A DNA stretch of 60,614 nt, taken from NCBI GenBank assembly GCA_041691135.1, contig JBEPVF010000009.1:1-60614 (forward strand), given 5' to 3'. Under the pieces are notes generated by a model. It saw nothing but the letters and a program-made list of their open reading frames with translations, had not been told where the DNA came from and searched no databases. The position numbers and the translations under genes were made by a program. Shown here piece by piece: positions 1-47,067 of the stretch (positions within the stretch are counted from its first letter, which is position 1; the number at the start of each line of letters is the position of its first letter). This DNA comes from Candidatus Peribacteria bacterium (lineage in GTDB: Bacteria > Patescibacteriota > Gracilibacteria > Peribacterales > Peribacteraceae).

Positions 1-62
1 TCATTGTCTGGAATAGCGAGCAGGTGAAGAGGTTAGGCGGCTGCAGCCGCCTGGGAGTAGTG
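1..62 (+). repeat. Partial copy (3' end) of the ~340-nt structured repeat / candidate ncRNA
   Basis: GAAGAGGTTAGGCGGCTGCAGCCGCCTGGGAGTAG matches the 3' ends of the copies at 13161-13503 and 46311-46651; truncated by the window edge. Confidence 0.75.
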
Positions 63-81
63 GGAATGCAGAAAAACAAAA

Positions 82-126
82 TCCTCGGTTTCGTCGGCGC
101 CGTCGGTTTCCTCGGGGTCCTCAATC
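82..126. repeat. Degenerate 9-nt tandem repeat (TCCTCGGTT-like)
   Basis: TCCTCGGTT TCGTCGGCG CCGTCGGTT TCCTCGGGG TCCTCAATC; related tracts near 13505, 16780, 17262, 19749, 34897, 45030. Confidence 0.7.
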
Positions 127-2932: not shown

Positions 2933-4401
<1,469 letters not shown>

Positions 4402-10689: not shown

Positions 10690-11250
10690 ATGCCAACCCT
10701 TTCACCTTCATCGGAGGATGTCCGCATCTATGAGTGCGCGGTCCTGTATCCGAACGACCTGTCCCAAAAGGAAGAGGCCGAATTGATCAAAGAGATTGAA
10801 GGCTACTTCGACGAAGTCGGCGCCAAACTCATCAGCAAAGATGCATGGGGCATGCGCGGACTGGCCTATCCAGTCGAAGGTCACAAAGAAGGCAAATACA
10901 CCATCTACTACTTCGAGATGGATCCGGCCAAGCTAAAGGAAGTCGATCAGGCATTGCGCATCAATAGGAACGTTTTGCGTCACTTGTTCGTCAAACCACC
11001 CAAGCACTACCAGATCATCAAATACAGCGAGGCATACGAAGAGTGGATGAAGACGCGTGAGAGCGTTGAACAGGTCCGTGCACGCGAAAAAGAAGAGAAG
11101 GTGAAGGAGCAGGTGGCCAAGCGTGCCAAGAAGCAGGTAGAGAAGGCGACGACGGAGCGCAAAAAGGCCCCCGGCGACAAGCCTGCCCTCGAACACGGTC
11201 AGCTCGATGCGAAACTCGAAGAGCTCCTTTCCGATTCCACTGATCTCTAA
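10690..11250 (+). CDS. rpsF: 30S ribosomal protein S6 with long charged C-terminal extension
   Basis: YE...WGMRGLAYP...VLRHL; directly upstream of rpsR. Confidence 0.93.
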   Translation: MPTLSPSSEDVRIYECAVLYPNDLSQKEEAELIKEIEGYFDEVGAKLISKDAWGMRGLAYPVEGHKEGKYTIYYFEMDPAKLKEVDQALRINRNVLRHLFVKPPKHYQIIKYSEAYEEWMKTRESVEQVRAREKEEKVKEQVAKRAKKQVEKATTERKKAPGDKPALEHGQLDAKLEELLSDSTDL

Positions 11251-11492
11251 TGGCAAACCAGCAAAAGCAACAGCAACGGCGCGCCGATCCCCGTGGCAAG
11301 AAATGTCCCTTCTGCGACAAGAATGCTCGCTACCTCGATTACAAAGATTACCCGACGCTCAAGCCGTACACCGATTACTTCGGTAACATTCGCAACCGTT
11401 ACTACACGGGCGTGTGTCTGAAGCATCAGAAAATGCTGCGCCTCGGCATCGAACGCGCACGCTTTATGGCGATGCTGGCGTACAGAAAATAA
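11250..11492 (+). CDS. rpsR: 30S ribosomal protein S18 (Zn-binding type)
   Basis: CPFC, DYKD, TGVCLKHQ, IERARFMA; TAATG coupling with rpsF. Confidence 0.95.
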   Translation: MANQQKQQQRRADPRGKKCPFCDKNARYLDYKDYPTLKPYTDYFGNIRNRYYTGVCLKHQKMLRLGIERARFMAMLAYRK

Positions 11493-11520
11493 GAAGACTC
11501 AGAGGATGCGAGGTCGTTGT

Positions 11521-11862
11521 TTAGGCTGCAATGCGGCTCGGTGGATTTGCCTGAGTGTTCGGCACAGCTTCCGTTGTTCTACGCTCATCTGGTGCAGTGG
11601 GTCGGACTTCCGTTCCTTCGTATCGAACGGGGATATAAATTTCTAAATACTTGTCGTCTACGTTGGTTTCCGGGGGCAGTTTTTTTGAGTTATGAAGCCT
11701 AGCTGCTCGTTTGCGTGTCTCGACAATGTGATCATGGATAATTGTGCGATCACTTGAATCGACATTCTCAATTGTGCCTCCGTTTTGCAGAATAGTTGCT
11801 GCTCGCTCCAATGCCTCTTGGTAGCCTGGCTGTGGATAGTTTTGTTCGGGAATATTTGTCAT
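11521..11862 (-). CDS. Hypothetical protein (113 aa ORFan)
   Basis: Lower-GC ORF with upstream TTGACA-N16-TACAAT. Confidence 0.55.
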   Translation of the reverse strand: MTNIPEQNYPQPGYQEALERAATILQNGGTIENVDSSDRTIIHDHIVETRKRAARLHNSKKLPPETNVDDKYLEIYIPVRYEGTEVRPTAPDERRTTEAVPNTQANPPSRIAA

Positions 11863-11942
11863 ACGGTTTAATAATTGGTTAATTTATATTGTACATTAAT
11901 TTTAAATTATGTCAATATACTGCTTCAAATGATAGAAATGCG

Positions 11943-12263
11943 CTATCCAGCATAATGTAGGAGTCTGTTATGGAATGTCATTGATATGTAGCTCTCCGGG
12001 TGTGACTCCTGATATTCCAGCCCAGGGATTGTCGGCCTGGCTTTATGGTTGCCGTGTTTCTCCGTTCTCCACTCAGCAAGCATTAATGTCATTTCCTCGT
12101 CTACCCGTTCATTTGTAATCAGGTAAGGATCTATCTCTTCCAGTCTAGTTCGCAGAGCGTCTACCGCGTGTCGTACGTGAGACGTTAATACAGGTTGTGC
12201 ACGTCGCTTGTTACAGAGAGCTTGTTCTGCAATTTTTGATAAATGATATTCACTATGTCTCAT
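11943..12263 (-). CDS. Hypothetical protein (106 aa ORFan)
   Basis: TATTCT 7 nt upstream of ATG. Confidence 0.5.
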   Translation of the reverse strand: MRHSEYHLSKIAEQALCNKRRAQPVLTSHVRHAVDALRTRLEEIDPYLITNERVDEEMTLMLAEWRTEKHGNHKARPTIPGLEYQESHPESYISMTFHNRLLHYAG

Positions 12264-12391
12264 AGAAGAGAGAATAAAACGGCCGCCATACTCTCACTTG
12301 TTTTGGGCAAGTCAATTAACTGATGTTCTTAGTGGTAAAATTCGGTTCTATAAGCTTTTTGCACCCAAAATTTCTCCGCTATACTTTTTGC

Positions 12392-13135
12392 ATGTCTGGC
12401 CATTCCAAATGGGCAAATATTCGGGTGAAGAAAACGGCGCAAGATGCCAAGCGTGGCAAAGTGTTCACGCGGCATGCACGATTGATCGAAATCGCGGCGA
12501 GTGCCGGCAAGAGCGGTGATCCGTCGATCAATGCGTCGCTGCGGTCGGCAATCGACAACGCCAAAGCCGATTCGGTGCCGAATGCCAACATCGAGCGGGC
12601 GATCAAGAAAGGCCTCGGCGAGCTGAAAGGCGAACAGATGCAGGAGATGCTGTACGAGGCGTATGGGCCGGGCAGCACGGCGTACATCATCGAGTGCCTG
12701 TCGGATAACCGGAACCGCACCACGGCCAACGTGCGTACTATTGTGACGAAGCATGGCGGGCGCATGGCGGATAGCGGATCAGTTGCCTATCAATTCGAAC
12801 GCAAAGGAACGGTGGCCGCCGAATTCCCCGGTGGTAGAGACGCGATACCATGGCGTCTGCCGGACGACGTTGAATTGGCACTGATCGACCGCGGAGCCGA
12901 AGATATTGTCGCCGGCGACGGCATCGTTACCGTAACCACCGCGATGATCGATTGGTCGCGCATCCGAGATTTTTTAAAGGACAGTGGGGCCACTATTCAT
13001 GCCGCTGGCGTATCGTTCGTCGCGAAAGCGAAAATGCCCGTCGACGATGTTATGGCGCAGAAGGTCGTCAATTTTATGGAGAGCATCGAAGAAGACGAAG
13101 ATGTGAGCGAGGTGTATACGAATGCGGATGTTTGA
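12392..13135 (+). CDS. yebC: YebC/PmpR family protein
   Basis: MSGHSKWANI, YEAYGPG, DNRNRT, EDVSEVYTN. Confidence 0.95.
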   Translation: MSGHSKWANIRVKKTAQDAKRGKVFTRHARLIEIAASAGKSGDPSINASLRSAIDNAKADSVPNANIERAIKKGLGELKGEQMQEMLYEAYGPGSTAYIIECLSDNRNRTTANVRTIVTKHGGRMADSGSVAYQFERKGTVAAEFPGGRDAIPWRLPDDVELALIDRGAEDIVAGDGIVTVTTAMIDWSRIRDFLKDSGATIHAAGVSFVAKAKMPVDDVMAQKVVNFMESIEEDEDVSEVYTNADV

Positions 13136-13160
13136 AGGGATCGAGGATTACAGTAACCAG

Positions 13161-13503
13161 TAGAGCGCCATGCTTTGGCGCGATTGTGTTCTATGCCTTC
13201 ATCATTCCTTGTCTTAATTTTTTCTAGGGGAGCGGGTTTGCTACCCGCGGATGTTCATGATTCCCTAGTACCAACTTCTCCAGTCACCAGTGGTGTCCTT
13301 TCTTTTTTCTACCGCAAAAAAGAAAGTACCAAAGAAAAACCCACCGCCTATGACCCACCTCACTTCAGGGAAGCGCTTGCGGCTTGCTTCCCTGAAGTTC
13401 GTAACCACCTATCCCCACCACATAGGCGGAGGGGTGTTTGCTTGGAAGAGCGAACAGGCGAAGAGGTTTGGCGGCCTCTAGCCGCCTGGGACTAGCGAAG
13501 GGG
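13161..13503 (+). ncRNA. Candidate structured RNA / dispersed repeat, copy A (~340 nt)
   Basis: Collinear with 46311-46651; several conserved hairpins with compensatory changes; TACAGT 6 nt upstream. Confidence 0.65.
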
Positions 13504-13575
13504 GTCCTCGGTTTCCTCGGAGTCCTCAATTATCGATCTTCTCCTGAATCCTCATCATCGGTCACCTCTGTGCCC

Positions 13576-16500
13576 TCACTCCACCGTCACATTCACTCTC
13601 GCCTCGCCCGTATTCCCCGCAAAATCTGTGGCGACGGCGCGCAGGACGTGCGGGCCGGGTGAGACATTTTTGAGCGGATAGGCGAGCTGGTAGGGTGCAA
13701 CCGAATTGCGGGCAAGGAGAATGCTATCCAAATAAAATTCGACGTACCGCAGGCCGCCGTCATCCGTTGCGTCGGCTTGCATGTTCAAGGTACTGCCGGC
13801 GCGGACGGAAACGTCGTCGGATGGAATCAGGAATTGTACTTGGGGCTTGCCGGTGTCTTCGCCGAACGAGAACGTCGCTGTCTGACTCACTTGGTTGTAG
13901 TACGTGTCGGTGAGCGTCACCTTCAGTTGATGCATGCCGTCTTTGGAGACGGATCGCGGCAGCCGCAGCACGGGATCGTACGGAGACGTTGTGGCCGTCA
14001 GCAGTTCTTTTCCGTCGAGCATGTATTGCACTGACAACACGCCGGAGCCGACTTTGTACTGGATCTTCGGATTCATGGCCGGGTAACTGGCGATGCCGCC
14101 GTCGGTGGGCGACAGAAGTTGCAATGTCGGTTGCACCAGGCGGCCGGGGGTTTTGGAAATATCACACTTCTCGGTGGGGGCCACCGGAAGCGCCGAACCG
14201 GTACCGCTTACGCCTCCGGCCCAGCCTTGTACGCCTTGTTCCCACGTAGGCCATCGTTCGGCTAGGATGCTATGTGGCACCAAGAAGCTGCGCATTTCCT
14301 GTGCTTCCGCCGGACAGCTGTCGGAAGCGAGGAGACCGGTTACCTTGTCGACCAGTATAGATGCGCAGGCCGGATCGGGTTTGGTCGGGGCGAATTCCTT
14401 CAAGAAAATTTCCGGACGGCGCTGGTCGATGGGTGTGCACTCAGTCGGGAGTTCTCCAGACAACAACGAGATCTGCGGTTGGACGATACCGTCGGGCATC
14501 GCGAAGGTCTTCTCTTTGGGCTGAAGAACTTTGAGTGATTGGGTCATGAATTCTTTCCAGATCGGTGCAGCCACATTCAGGCCGTCGGCATTGTTTGGCA
14601 GAGGCGAACTGTCGGCATTACCGACCCACACGGCGGTGACGAGGGTTGGTGTGTAGCCGATGGTCCACAGATCACGTGGCTTGCGTGTTTTGCAGTCGCC
14701 GATCGTGACATCGTTCCATACGATGCATGCATCGCTGGTGCCGGTTTTCGCGGCGGCCTGGTAGCCGGGGACAGTGAGGGCACTGGCCCAGAAGTCGGTG
14801 GGTCTGGCGCTCACATCACTCAGAATAGAAGTGACTTCGTAGGCAACGCGCGGGTCGAGCACTTCTTTTCCCGTGGCGTTCACGTCAGCCTGGTAGCGGA
14901 TGGACTGATTGCGATCGGCGATCTTCAGAATGCTCACCGGATCTTTTTCCACGCCGCCGTCGGCGAGCGTGCTGTACGCATTGACCATTTGATACAGCGG
15001 TGTTTCGCCGGCACCGATGGCCAGCGTGTAGCCGAAATCTTTTACCTTGCCGGCTTTCTTTTGATCATACGGGGCATGCGCACCCAAGTCGGCCACGAAC
15101 TGCAGTACGCTGTCTTCGTTGCTGCCGCCGGCCAAAAAGAAGGCTTTGATGGCCGGAATATTGCGCGAACCGGCCAGAGCGCGACGCGCGTTGGTCAGCC
15201 CCCAATAGCCGCCTTCGAAGTTCTGCGGCGTGTTGTTGCCGAACTTCGTCTTCACATCATAGAGCACGGTGGCCGGACCGTAGCCTTTGGTAAAAGCATC
15301 GGCGTAGATCAGCGGCTTAAACGACGAACCCGGCTGACGCGGCACCTGCACCATGTCGATCTTGCCGCCGTTCTCTTGATCGCCGTAGTCGGAGTTGCCG
15401 ACGTACGCGAGGATTTCCTTGGTGCGCGGATCCATCGCCATGATGGCGATGTTGTGAGCGCCATAGTTTTTCAGAATGCTGTCGCGTTTGTCGGCGACGA
15501 TCTTCTCGGCGATCTGTTGCAGGCGCCAGTCGAGCGATGTCTGAATCGTCAGGCCGCCCTGTTCGAGCAGTCCTTTATTCTGTGCCGCGTCGAACAATGT
15601 ATTCAGCTGATTTTTCATCCACAGCGTGAAGTGCGGTGCGCGAATGCTCTCGCGCTCGGGCTTGAATTGCAGTTGCGCCAATTGATCGAGCGCCTTCAGA
15701 CGATCGTCATTGGAGATCATTCCCTGGTCCTGCATATTCTTTAATACTTGATCGGCACGTCCGCCGATGTAGATGACCGTCGCGCCGGTGCCAAAACTAT
15801 TTCCAAGCAGTCCGGATGTAATGCGGTTGTCCGGGATTTGCGATCGCTCGGTGATGCGCCCGTCGGCAATTTTTTTGAGGATATCGTCGGTGAGCTGTGT
15901 GCGGACGTGCGTGCCGTACGGGTTGTAGTACGGTGGGCGCTGCGGAATAGATGACAAAATTGCCGATTCGCCGAGAGTCAGGTCTTTGGCTGATTTGCCG
16001 AAGTAGTTCTTGCTGGCCTGCTCCACACCGTAAATGTTGGGTCCGAACGGCACCCAGTTCAGATACAGCGCTAGAATATCGTCTTTGGAATAATTCCGTT
16101 CGATCTCGCAGGCGATCATGATCTCACGAATTTTGCGTGACACCGTACGTTCGTTCGTGAGGAGCGCGTTCCGGGCGAGTTGTTGTTCCAGGGTGGAAGC
16201 GCCCTGCGCTTGGCCACCAAAGATGGTGCGGAAGCCGGCACGGAGAATACCGCGCGGATCCACGCAGCCGTGCTGGTAGAACCGTTCGTCTTCGATGGCG
16301 ACGATGGCTTGCTTGAGAGTTTTGGCGATGCTGGTGGCCGGAATGACGGTACGGTCTTCGTTGGCGAACAGACGATAGAGCTCCACGCCATTGCGGTCGG
16401 TGAGGACCGTACTCTGGTCGGGCAGGAAGTTGCGCGGGTCTTTGATGTTCGGCAACGTGAGCCACAGGAAAGACAAGTACAACACTCCGAGTCCGGCTGC

Positions 16501-19604: not shown

Positions 19605-19658
19605 GATTTTTGGCGCTGCCGCTTTCTCCGCGGGTGGTGGAATTTAGGTGATTCATCG
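19605..19658 (+). repeat. Solo copy of the ~50-nt arm of the 38574-38733 inverted repeat
   Basis: GATTTTTGGCGCTGCCGCTTTCTCCGC...GAATTT...GATTCATCG matches the reverse complement of 38681-38733. Confidence 0.65.
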
Positions 19659-20508: not shown

Positions 20509-21807
20509 TTATTGCCCAATCGGCACATCCCCGCTCTGGAGATTCGCTGTTCCCGGATCCACCGGTACTTCCGCTGCTATTCCTTCCTGATAGAACAGTG
20601 GGCGCGCCTGATAGGCGGAGTAGAAGCGTTCAACTGTATCGGCGGCATTTTCGTGTGCCGTAATCCGGTACCATACTGCTTTCATCCCGGGGACGCGTTC
20701 GCCTACTTTCTTGCGTTCACCAGGAGCCAAATCGGTCGTGTACTCGATGCGGTCGGGCGGCGGGCCGACGCGATCCCAGATGTAGGGACCCACGACCTGC
20801 ACGTCACGATTATCGCGCGTGCCGTAGTAGATGAAGTAGGCGTTATCACCTTCTTCGTATGTTTGAATAAGCAAGGCGCCGGGGCTGTCGTTCTTGAACT
20901 TCATGTCCGGTGCCGGCGTGAAGACCGTCGCGTCGGTACCGACCGGAAAGTAGTGACTCACGATGTAACTGTGATTCGTGCGCGAGACGATGGGGAAGCC
21001 GTATTCCCAGACTCCGCGATACGCAGTGGAACTCACCTGGCACAGGCCGCCGCCGTAGTCCGGCACGGTTTTGTCACCTTTGATGACGAGTTCGCGCAAG
21101 TAGCCCGTCGCCGCGTTCACGGGGCCCAGAACATCGATAAACGAGAAGACTGTATTTTGCGGAATGATCGTGCCGTTGAATTTGCTCAGGCCGGTTGCAA
21201 TATTGTGTTTGCGATTGGGCGGTGAGCGGCTCATATCGGATTCACCGATCGTCACCACTTCTTGTATGCCTTCGGCCGTGAGCGCCGGGTCCGTGACGGT
21301 GATATGCGGTTGCGTCTCGATCATGGGGAGGACGATTTCGATGATTCCCTGTTGCAGTGCATCAATGGTAAGGGCCGTCGCGCGATCCAGATCGACATCG
21401 CGGCCGGTCAGTCCCACGCCTTGGAACGTCACCTTCCCTGTCGCATCCGTGCCGATGGCCACGTCGCCGGGATCGCGGTGCAAAGCGGTTCCAATCTCCT
21501 GGTCCAAGGACTGACGAATTGCTCCCTGGTCATACGCTTCCACTTGCCGGCGTTCGAAGCCGGCGGGCACTCCCGGAAGTTGATCGCCGTCCACACGCAA
21601 TTCCGTTGGGGGTACAACCACCTGCCCGTTATAGAGCCATTGTTCCTGGGTTGAATGCCACTGGGGAAATTTGGCAGGATCGAGTGTGAAGAGGTAATGC
21701 TCGTAACGGTATGTAATTGGACTGGCGGCTGCGGAGGCTTGTACGGGGAAGAATCCGACGAAGCCGACGGCGCCGAGGAAGCCGAGAAGGGCGATATGCT
21801 CACGCAT
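20509..21807 (-). CDS. VanW family protein
   Basis: FSFIDVLG, YGGGLCQVSSTAYR, R.NHSY...Y...G.DAT, DMKFKND. Confidence 0.9.
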   Translation of the reverse strand: MREHIALLGFLGAVGFVGFFPVQASAAASPITYRYEHYLFTLDPAKFPQWHSTQEQWLYNGQVVVPPTELRVDGDQLPGVPAGFERRQVEAYDQGAIRQSLDQEIGTALHRDPGDVAIGTDATGKVTFQGVGLTGRDVDLDRATALTIDALQQGIIEIVLPMIETQPHITVTDPALTAEGIQEVVTIGESDMSRSPPNRKHNIATGLSKFNGTIIPQNTVFSFIDVLGPVNAATGYLRELVIKGDKTVPDYGGGLCQVSSTAYRGVWEYGFPIVSRTNHSYIVSHYFPVGTDATVFTPAPDMKFKNDSPGALLIQTYEEGDNAYFIYYGTRDNRDVQVVGPYIWDRVGPPPDRIEYTTDLAPGERKKVGERVPGMKAVWYRITAHENAADTVERFYSAYQARPLFYQEGIAAEVPVDPGTANLQSGDVPIGQ

Positions 21808-34844: not shown

Positions 34845-35044
34845 GAGGGGAGTATAGAAGGTTTGAGAAAGAGGAAGAAGTCGAGTTTTCTTGAAAGAGG
34901 AAACCGAAGCAACCGACGGAACCGAAGATAAAAATCTGATGATAATTCTTTCTGTGTCCGTTACATCACTTCACTATTCAATTTGGCCGTCAATTGCGAC
35001 ATTCGGCGTGGGCGCGTACTTTTTGGGTACTTTCCTCTGATCCA

Positions 35045-35386: not shown

Positions 35387-35476
35387 GGAGAGGTCGCATA
35401 GTGGCCTAGTGCGCGCGCTTGGAAAGCGCGTAGACCTGAAAGGGTCTCGGGGGTTCGAATCCCCCCCTCTCCGCCA
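35387..35476 (+). tRNA. tRNA-Ser(GGA)
   Basis: GGAGAGG acceptor stem, anticodon arm CGCGC-TTGGAAA-GCGCG, long variable arm, GGTTCGAATCC, encoded CCA. Confidence 0.97.
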
Positions 35477-46223: not shown

Positions 46224-46310
46224 GGAGAAGAGAGGGGATATCGCAGAGTAACAATAGTGTGCTTTAAACATAGCTTAATAGACATTTTGTCATTTCTATA
46301 TAATTACCAT

Positions 46311-46651
46311 TAGAGCGCCATGCTTTGGCGCGGCTGTATTCAATACCCTCATTGTTTCCTCTCTTCACTCCCACCTTTGGAGCGGGTTTGCTACCCGCGG
46401 ATGTTCATGATTCCCCAGCACCAACCTCTCCAATCACCACTGGTGTCCTTTCTTTGTCTCCCCGACAAAGAAAGGACCAAAGAAAGCGCACCGCCTATGA
46501 CCCACCTCGCCCTGCTGTCGCGCCTGTGGGCATGCGACAGCAGGGCTCGTAACCACTCATCCCCACCACATAGTCGGAGGGGTGTTTGCTTGGAATCGCG
46601 AACGTGCGAAGAGGTTGGGCGGCGTAGGGCCGCCTGGGAGTAGTGAAGGGG
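46311..46651 (+). ncRNA. Candidate structured RNA / dispersed repeat, copy B (~340 nt)
   Basis: Collinear with 13161-13503; TATAAT 6 nt upstream. Confidence 0.65.
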
Positions 46652-47067
46652 CTTCGCGTAAACAAAACATAGACATCTCCCTCTCCCGGCAGGTCTTTGA
46701 TGTTCAATCACGAACGAATGACCAAATCTTCCTTAGCGACAGGGGGCGGAGGGAGGGCCGGGGTGAGGGGGCTATCCAGAAGTTCACAACCCGCCTATCT
46801 ATGGAAAAAAGTTCACTTAGATGCGGACACTTGTCCACGAGAGGGGACAGATGTTCGGTCTATTGGCGTTTCTTTGGCAAATGCTTTAGTTGGGAATTCA
46901 AAAGTGATTTTATAAAATATTACGAAAAATTGTGAATGTTATGATTACTATACTTTCACTCAGTAGTGTTTCTGGTTAAGAATTCAATTATTGACGAAAA
47001 TTAAATTCGATGTTGAAGAGTAAGGACTTTCGTCCTCCGGCTGTGAGGCCAAGTGCACACTGATCCG

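Follow-up and report, generated by a model that had tools for sequence, protein, structure and literature searches.

Repetitive extragenic palindromic (REP) sequences and the REP-associated tyrosine transposases (RAYTs) form systems in which, according to the accounts in PMC3733652 and PMC6006769, each RAYT gene goes with one REP family and a genome holds several such families; RAYTs are thought to spread REPs, in a manner that PMC3479197 and PMC6006769 describe as still unclear. The RAYT of Escherichia coli, TnpA-REP, is reported to require single-stranded DNA bearing a 5' GTAG and a hairpin and to cut at CT dinucleotides, possibly distant ones (PMC3479197), and the Y1 transposases of IS200/IS605 are described as acting on the lagging-strand template at the replication fork (PMC6006769). 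In Pseudomonas putida and P. fluorescens, as summarised in PMC3733652, a degenerate GTAG REP is joined to an unrelated stem-loop and the composite is repeated; the same source (Di Nocera et al. 2013) gives a GGGGWSAS motif for repeats that flank genes of tyrosine transposases. Here we describe a repeat located at positions 13161-13503 of a 60,614-nucleotide stretch of DNA (the window) from a Candidatus Peribacteria bacterium (GenBank assembly GCA_041691135.1, contig JBEPVF010000009.1), for which an earlier note, made from the letters of the stretch, had offered two interpretations, a transcribed and undescribed non-coding RNA (ncRNA) with its own -10 box or a non-autonomous element mobilised through a folded single strand. 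The RAYT genes and the strand bias reported below favour the latter and leave the ncRNA gene aside: the element is probably a REP/RAYT-associated, one-headed, mosaic, non-autonomous mobile DNA repeat and not a new ncRNA gene, and three RAYTs encoded on other contigs are likely the enzymes acting on it in trans. The window is the entire contig C9, one of the 35 contigs of a genome of 1,739,992 bases that is 92.3% complete and 3.8% contaminated.

The repeat is far above chance expectation in this genome. A genome-wide DNA search returned 34 matches to it, and an nhmmer profile built from five full-length copies returned 36, which correspond to 35 loci with unrelated flanks in 1.74 Mb. Because the repeat interrupts the assembly, 11 of the 36 nhmmer matches touching a contig end, the true copy number is probably higher. 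In the Logan contigs of one DNA run, aligned to positions 11000-16000 of the window, depth was 18-19 in the unique flanks and summed to 147-168 across the element; no joint skipping the element of copy A was present among these contigs, which drop rare variants and are uninformative on excision. Copy A (13161-13503) and a second copy, B (46311-46651), can be aligned end to end at 79% identity (BLAST), and, just as the earlier note had counted, their opening 140 nt are identical at 114 of 140 ungapped positions and all three window copies lie on the + strand between long open reading frames (ORFs). The sequence at 1-62, which had been taken for a 3' fragment, does belong to the repeat; it is not a natural fragment, as this copy is truncated by the start of the contig. 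Likewise, the repeat of ~340 nt is real and proved to be longer than had been thought, with a GTAG foot starting at 13160 in copy A and with copy B running to ~46771.

Comparison of the copies revealed a mosaic layout in which a head of one to three hairpin units is followed by a multi-hairpin body of ~240 nt and then by alternative tails (Table 1 gives the features of the window). The module mapping relies on specific modules and a strict hairpin scan, fuzzy patterns that over-called R1b, E and G6 having been discarded. Three kinds of head unit occur, each with a tail of ~15 nt after it: R1, which is (G)TAG or CAG and then AGCGCC-loop-GGCGCGG; R1b, which is GAGCGGG-loop-CCCGCGG, preceded by GGG or TAGGGG; and R2, which is GTAG in most copies and then CAGCAGCCG-TCCCC-CGGCTGCGG. 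R2 gave 16 pattern matches genome-wide, two of them at a RAYT gene. Most copies look 5'-shortened against A and B, starting at profile position ~87 or ~117-126, but carry another 5' module instead. The body contains, in this order, a small CACC/GGTG hairpin, a T/A-rich hairpin of ~14 bp, a CCGCCTATG/CATAGGCGG helix around a variable 13-bp hairpin, a less structured stretch, a GGCGGC/GCCGCC hairpin and the end ...GTAGTGAAGGGG; five copies have an optional 32-nt insert in it.

The tail can be a module named 3i/3i2, often with another, M4, after it, or a 3ii-type sequence, or unique DNA. The 3i/3i2 pattern was found at 18 places, mostly joined to elements, and is carried by 14 of the 26 listed 3' ends of the family, and M4 (GATGAATC...AGAAAGCGGCAGCGCC), which forms a small hairpin, has 12 copies genome-wide that stand alone or follow a 3i/3i2 tail. 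The 3ii sequence is a 9-nt-periodic repeat of TCGGnnnCC units with 25 pattern matches genome-wide, those in the window being at 94-115 (+), 21755-21776 (-) and 34904-34925 (-); many genes have it immediately behind their stop codon, in an orientation that is antisense to them as written, and it sometimes supplies one half of a terminator-like hairpin (GAAACCGAGGA...TCCTCGGTTTC). The 3ii sequence adjoins the end of nine element copies, but since it also occurs alone after many genes, it is probably the neighbourhood of insertion and not a part of the element.

Head and body belong together. An R1, R1b or R2 hairpin in the same orientation immediately precedes the body in 20 of the 22 copies whose 5' side is on the contig; of the remaining two bodies, one is cut by the contig end with just an R2 tail and the other (C4:42377-42622) is headless. 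Head hairpins lacking a body, those flanking RAYT genes aside, are almost confined to contig ends. Moreover, the loci C1:254112, C5:6024 and C11:24564 have the same head of ~110 nt, R2-linker-R1b, in front of the body, and their flanks differ; thus, we conclude that the head-plus-body composite has multiplied as a unit. The 3' modules of these three loci differ, which we attribute to recombination among copies; a variable mobilised 3' end is possible as well. Among 24 copies, the variable hairpin has at least nine different stems, and at C23:15-208 it is chimeric, with a left arm of the ACTTCCTTGTCGC type, a right arm of the GCTGTGACACAGT type and a broken stem, which looks like a sign of recombination between two copies.

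The earlier note had suggested looking for a co-occurring HUH protein, and such proteins were found with the heads of the element around their genes. The proteins of the genome gave four Y1_Tnp matches. Three, which are encoded on contigs C1, C5 and C11, passed the NCBIfam equivalog model NF047646 (REP_Tyr_transpos, cut-off 80 bits), the three scores being 93, 96.9 and 86.3 bits; the fourth match, at 131.4 bits on NF033573, identifies a true TnpA of the IS200/IS605 family on contig C8. Among PDB sequences, the sole match was 4ER8, the TnpA-REP of E. coli (E 3.8e-9), and the alignment covers the HUH and Y-x-x-N-P-V stretches. The C11 RAYT gene lies between inverted R1 arms of 22 nt (AGAGCGCC..GGCGCGG) that are 95% complementary, the C1 gene between inverted R2 arms of 28 nt (TGTAGAAGCAGCCGTCCCCGGCTGCGGT) that are 96% complementary with the GTAG included, and the C5 gene between inverted R1 arms consisting of a 14-nt and a 12-nt stretch split by a 1-nt loop indel. 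Judged from its sequence, this arrangement of a RAYT gene between inverted hairpins is the layout of a REPtron. The same layout was seen in relatives, with an R1-type hairpin in a genome of the same genus and with an R1b-type hairpin in another genus. In a panel of 41 genomes, this one included, RAYT matches over the cut-off were present in 25, and some genomes of ~1 Mb had more than 10 matches, up to 19 at E<=1e-5. For genes that are mostly described as single-copy, the RAYTs of the relatives' ~1 Mb genomes are unusually numerous.

Other enzymes were considered and set aside. A reading as a TnpB/omega-RNA or an IS110 bridge-RNA system was rejected, as neither TnpB-type proteins (PF07282) nor IS110 (PF01548) gave a match in this 92%-complete genome. 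There was one rve match (PF00665), below the family cut-off, and one DDE_Tnp_1 match (PF01609) at 37.3 bits against a cut-off of 23, which is partial and has a TAG stop. A group II intron or retron was likewise set aside, since the one reverse transcriptase (RT) gene, on C8, adjoins no copy of the repeat and the intron models remained unmatched. That gene stands in a locus of its own, C8:10171-13331, where a 349-aa RT (160 bits on a group II intron RT/maturase model whose cut-off is 300), a DUF2779 protein and the IS200/IS605 TnpA with its own flanking hairpins lie together, unrelated to the repeat family.

The copies are oriented uniformly relative to replication. On 10 of the 10 contigs with at least two matches, every match was on one strand, and when the 10-kb flanks were scored separately, the + strand of the element was the G-rich strand at 26 of the 35 loci, with seven mixed and two opposite, both on C14; with a single window of +/-15 kb, 30 of the 36 matches were on the G-rich strand. 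Three copies in a metagenome-assembled genome (MAG) of a sister species are on the G-rich strand as well, one of them marginally. This bias is not explained by a general co-orientation of features, because ORFs, by crude calls, were divided 524 to 475 between the G-rich and the C-rich strand (52.5%) and tRNA genes 19 to 19 with 12 ambiguous. The G-rich strand is generally taken as the leading strand, which would match the lagging-strand template in sequence, so that the strand bearing foot and hairpin would be the one left single-stranded at the fork. The bias would thus fit single-strand transposition at the replication fork. Along the window itself, GC skew is positive from 1 to ~45 kb and strongly negative (-0.04 to -0.15) from ~47 kb. 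Copy B was scored as mixed because it sits at this switch (~45-47.5 kb), and the switch at copy B (46310-46771) could mean either a replication terminus beside the repeat or an assembly mis-join at it.

Relative to genes, no such uniformity was seen. At the 23 loci with both neighbours present, counted on the crude ORF calls, the flanking genes were convergent in five, tandem in 17 and divergent in one; in the tandem spacers, the element was sense nine times and antisense eight times, a split that argues against a sense-specific role in neighbouring mRNAs. REPs are described as likewise avoiding divergent, promoter-bearing spacers (PMC3733652).

A comparison of empty sites, as the earlier note had proposed, could be made for copy A. 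The genes flanking it are syntenic in three genomes of the same genus, and the orthologous spacer, 440 nt here, is 46-48 nt in two of these and 155 nt in the third. The body occurs in 2 of the 41 genomes, namely this one and one other with three copies; the other genomes share just pieces of 21-60 nt, which are the R1b hairpin, the T/A hairpin and the R1 hairpin. Similarly, a body-motif scan over the genomes of 185,579 species found it in one MAG, labelled uncultured Candidatus Peribacteria bacterium and having three copies, and pattern scans of metagenome contigs gave 0 matches. In the sister-species copies, the R1b hairpin becomes GCAGG/CCTGC. A diverged composite was found at three loci (L032, L042 and L047) of another genus, where a REP-type head is joined to the T/A hairpin with the same flanks (…GTACC-CAAAGAAAAACCCACC) and then to a different 3' part, conserved among the three, again with the GCCTGTGG loop motif.

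We examined folding in an alignment (A2) of 24 body copies, 21 from this genome and three from the sister species, against a structure that we had specified. Standard pairs occupied 92.2% of 1227 cells versus 43-54% when the 3' partners were slid by 1-3 columns, both sides had changed at 18 of the 52 pairs, and the covariation score was reached by none of 500 shuffles. Both-side changes affected 11 of 13 pairs in the variable hairpin and 5 of 14 in the T/A hairpin, and covariation lends its support to local hairpins only. The CCGCCTATG/CATAGGCGG helix has 8 counted pairs, of which 6 are invariant, so covariation is uninformative there; in the GGCGGC hairpin, no pair changed on both sides, one of six being invariant and five departing via unpaired cells only. 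The long-range pairing AACYTCT/AGAGGTT is weak, with 82% of cells paired, both-side changes at 2 of 7 pairs and many G-U or unpaired cells. At the level of the window, our counts agree with those made before: the 13-bp stems at 13362-13398 and 46509-46546 are both perfect and differ at 9 of 13 positions, and the GGCGGC/GCCGCC hairpin has a different loop in each of the three copies.

Neither strand, however, is marked as the folded one. RNA folding gave z scores of -4.54 (+ strand) and -4.25 (- strand), and RNAalifold on an hmmalign alignment yielded comparable energies for the two strands, -133.4 and -142.2. G-U pairs, which had been said to fall on the + strand, do not do so generally: counts of G-U versus A-C, which corresponds to G-U on the opposite strand, were 6 to 6 in the T/A hairpin and 4 to 5 in the variable hairpin, the two hairpins that covary, and the overall figure of 53 to 32 comes from a shared variant of the small hairpin (13 to 1) and from the weak long-range helix (25 to 18). 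Two further ideas on the body were tried and dropped. A protein-coding reading had ORFs of 106 and 107 aa spanning A and B in its favour, but any one frame was open in at most 4 of the 24 bodies; and for a guide function of the variable hairpin, 11-mers of its arms had 0-2 matches outside the elements, which is about chance.

When these features are set beside described systems, REP and bacterial interspersed mosaic elements (BIMEs) with their RAYTs, the REPtrons of E. coli, Pseudomonas and Stenotrophomonas, come closest. As in those, RAYT-class Y1 HUH genes lie within inverted G+C-rich hairpins that are scattered through intergenic regions as well, each RAYT gene goes with a single hairpin type and a genome has several types, a GTAG-like foot stands 5' of some of the hairpins, convergent or tandem spacers are occupied, and the hairpins are combined with other motifs into mosaics. 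Unlike in those, the REP here is never a free unit of 20-40 nt nor an inverted doublet (BIME, or REPIN, the REP doublet forming a hairpin), being instead the one-sided head of a composite of 340-480 nt; there are tens of copies, low for a REP family, and not hundreds; the orientation relative to replication is uniform; and the host, with a genome of ~1.7 Mb, belongs to a different lineage. Thus, what is new against known REP systems is the REP head on a large conserved body, the tens of copies, the uniform replication orientation and the host lineage. The composites of Di Nocera et al. resemble the element in that what is repeated is a REP fused with further stem-loops, and the GGGGTGAG of the 3i2 module fits GGGGWSAS; they differ in flanking transposase genes as long inverted repeats, whereas here just the short REP flanks the genes, and the body here is far larger, with a perfect hairpin that is hypervariable.

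With IS200/IS605 and its miniature derivatives, the repeat shares Y1 HUH enzymes, hairpins on one strand, a strong orientation bias relative to the fork and a lack of visible terminal inverted repeats and target duplication. In contrast to that family, the transposases here pass the RAYT model and not the IS200 model and lie outside the element, between inverted hairpins; the resident TnpA on C8 has unrelated flanking hairpins; the left flank shows no conserved tetra- or pentanucleotide target; and TnpB was not found. BOX, bcr1 and NIME-type repeats are modular repeats at the level of RNA, and, like these and the structured ncRNAs of Rfam, the element is intergenic and modular, with several hairpins and compensatory changes; unlike them, it has no Rfam match and no defined transcript ends, its strands fold alike, and its copy number and its presence or absence are those of mobile DNA. 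Integron attC sites are recombination substrates that work as folded single strands, with conserved structure and free stem sequence, which parallels the variable hairpin. No cassette organisation was seen around the copies examined, although an integrase was not searched for, the enzyme family differs, and the element is far longer and has invariant unpaired blocks.

We consider it highly improbable that the repeat is a family of transcribed structured ncRNAs with promoters of their own, in which the variable hairpin would be a specificity element and the REP heads incidental. Strong covariation in several hairpins, unpaired stretches that are invariant within and between species, the conservation of the T/A hairpin with the same flanks in other genera, and the G-U excess on the + strand, clear in the small hairpin and slight in the long-range helix, would all agree with such RNAs. 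The TAnnnT box 6 nt upstream, which had been read as a -10 box, does stand in front of copies A and B, yet it is not a feature of the family, being found in 3 of 16 copies, with one more shifted by one base, and a sigma-70 promoter scan found no site at copy A. Against Rfam at the gathering score, the whole window yielded only a 16S rRNA gene and one tRNA and no match for the repeat, and with a threshold of E<=10 over 13100-13600 there was only noise, the best E-value of 0.41 belonging to a human long non-coding RNA model. Both strands fold equally well, the covarying hairpins lack the G-U asymmetry of an RNA, the variable arms have no target matches beyond chance, and the tandem contexts are almost evenly divided. 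Furthermore, heads that vary in number and type together with alternative 3' ends define no single RNA over ~35 loci, and a replication-strand bias of 26:2 is absent from the tRNA genes. The claim of an undescribed ncRNA with its own -10 box is not supported, given the unconserved box, the strands that fold alike and the lack of G-U asymmetry. As to the novelty of the repeat, which the note would have given up upon a match to Rfam or to a known REP or miniature inverted-repeat transposable element, its identity turned out to be largely that of a REP, and Rfam gave no match.

The heads might also be secondary in another way, the body being an independent repeat or hot spot beside which REP units insert singly by target preference, spread itself by recombination or by an unknown enzyme. 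That the same body bears heads differing in number, type and order, that a headless body exists at C4:42377-42622 and that tails such as 3ii occur on their own are all in line with it, and REPs inserting regularly into particular palindromes are described in other genomes (PMC3733652). We judge this unlikely, since only 1 of 22 bodies is headless, heads without a body are nearly limited to contig ends apart from the RAYT flanks, the same composite head recurs at three unrelated loci, the searches gave no further candidate transposase for the body, and the replication-strand bias holds for whole copies. Nor do we favour a host-domesticated, BIME-like intergenic element that binds a protein, protects transcript 3' ends or acts in termination and whose mobility is only historical; this seems very unlikely. 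It would account for the 22 of 23 loci lying between convergent or tandem genes and for the segments that are invariant across species, the widespread and multi-copy RAYT genes (25 of 41 genomes over the cut-off) suggest long-term retention, and REPs have been reported as RNA elements and as protein-binding sites (PMC3733652, PMC3479197). The body, though, was found in just 2 of the 41 genomes and the one Peribacteria MAG and in 0 of the scanned metagenome contigs, the sister species lack it at the orthologous site, and its orientation shows no dependence on which way the neighbouring genes point (9 versus 8); besides, this explanation concerns function and is compatible with an origin from REP and RAYT.

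Several observations weigh against the REP/RAYT-associated mobile repeat that we prefer. No movement was observed, and we infer the mobility; the site comparison is a single one, with short spacers too diverged for the breakpoints to be placed, and for the gene upstream of copy B a protein query found no orthologue in four genomes of the same genus. The foot of R1 is GTAG in some copies and otherwise TTAG, CTAG, CAG or AAG, and an R1b-flanked RAYT gene was not found in this 92%-complete genome. The left flanks have no conserved target; by our reading, CT stands just before the foot in 5 of 15, which is suggestive only. Heads within an element point in one orientation, and no inverted partner of the head was seen at the 3' end, so the element is not a REPIN and the known doublet model is inapplicable. 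In the small CACC/GGTG hairpin, G-U keeps the pairing on the + strand only (13 cells versus 1), owing to one shared variant. Finally, unpaired blocks of 17-36 nt in the body, for example CACCGCCTATGACCCACCTC and TCGTAACCAC..ATCCCCACCACATAGGCGGAGGGG, do not differ between two species in which the flanking proteins share only 74-78% identity. These blocks could reflect either a strong constraint on the body, be it for mobilisation in cis or for the host, or a recent exchange between the species; the body may have a function, such conservation being unexpected for passive cargo.

For a mobile REP/RAYT-associated repeat, the following course can be proposed. The head hairpin would fold on the foot-bearing strand while the lagging-strand template is single-stranded at the fork, a RAYT would then bind and cut the folded head, and the head-plus-body unit would be copied or moved into another single-stranded site. 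The uniform orientation relative to replication would result from this mobilisation on a fork strand, and recombination among the copies would afterwards shuffle heads, variable hairpins and tails. In this scheme we infer that a RAYT moves the whole unit, as well as the processing of the 3' end and the choice between copying and cutting. It is rather doubtful, although worth stating, that the body itself is a working folded nucleic acid, single-stranded DNA or RNA, and not passive cargo, a reading based on the identical unpaired blocks, on the hairpin changes that affect whole stems and on the composite of head and T/A hairpin in another genus. Possibly, a RAYT can move a one-headed element at the fork because the body provides what is missing, be it a second end or a co-factor structure; alternatively, the body might be an RNA useful to the host that spreads via interchangeable REP heads.

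Table 1. Features of the repeat family and other annotated features in the window, in window coordinates
Feature	Position	Strand	Basis
Copy A, head unit R1: GTAG foot (13160-13163) and REP-type hairpin GCGCC-ATGCTTT-GGCGC (13165-13181)	13160..13183	+	sequence, stem scan
Copy A, head unit R1b: hairpin GCGGG-TTTGCTA-CCCGC (13232-13248) and GGATGTTCATGATTC tail	13229..13262	+	sequence
Copy A, conserved body	13263..13503	+	alignment A2 of 24 copies
Body A, small hairpin CACC/GGTG	13285-13295	+	
Body A, T/A-rich hairpin	13295-13329	+	
Body A, closing helix CCGCCTATG with CATAGGCGG	13344-13352 with 13421-13429	+	
Body A, variable 13-bp hairpin	13362-13398	+	
Body A, GGCGGC/GCCGCC hairpin	13470-13486	+	
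Body A, GTAG-like end ...CTAGCGAAGGGG	end of 13263..13503	+	
Copy A, tail: 3ii-type repeat (TCCTCGGTTTCCTCGG...)	13504..13528	+	
Copy B: R1 head (hairpin 46315-46331), R1b head, body with a different variable hairpin (46509-46546)	46310..46651	+	
Copy B, 3' module 3i/3i2: CTCCCTCTCCCGGCAGG ... GGGGGCGGAGGGAGGGCCGGGGTGAGGGGG, long-loop hairpin	46652..46771	+	
Third copy, 3' end, cut by the start of contig C9; followed by 3ii-type tail (~80-123)	1..62	+	
Solitary module M4 (GATGAATC...GCGGCAGCGCC)	19612..19657	-	
16S rRNA gene	2933-4401	-	Rfam scan
tRNA, 87 nt, long variable arm	35387-35473	+	Rfam scan

As a side observation on the window, the 16S rRNA gene listed in Table 1 is present without a 23S or 5S match anywhere within the 60.6 kb.

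In the literature, we found no paper linking RAYTs or REPs with Peribacteria or with the candidate phyla radiation, in a full-text search that did not extend to the REP tables in the supplements to Di Nocera 2013 and Quentin 2018. An archaeal RAYT gene is mentioned in one preprint. For the host, the repeats amount to ~0.6% of the genome DNA (an estimate from ~35 loci of roughly 300 nt), and, besides breaking the assembly, they may seed mis-joins. Very small genomes, moreover, retain several RAYT genes. For the REP/RAYT family, the value of the element would lie in its asymmetry. Inverted REP doublets are symmetric, so that any directionality is hidden in them, whereas a one-sided REP on an asymmetric body exposes the 26:2 bias, which constitutes evidence from genomes for the handling of RAYT-associated elements in single-stranded form at the fork, as with IS200/IS605. 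If the body were indeed to work as the second end, the repeat would be the first natural substrate from which the direction and mechanism of mobilisation by RAYTs are revealed by genomes.

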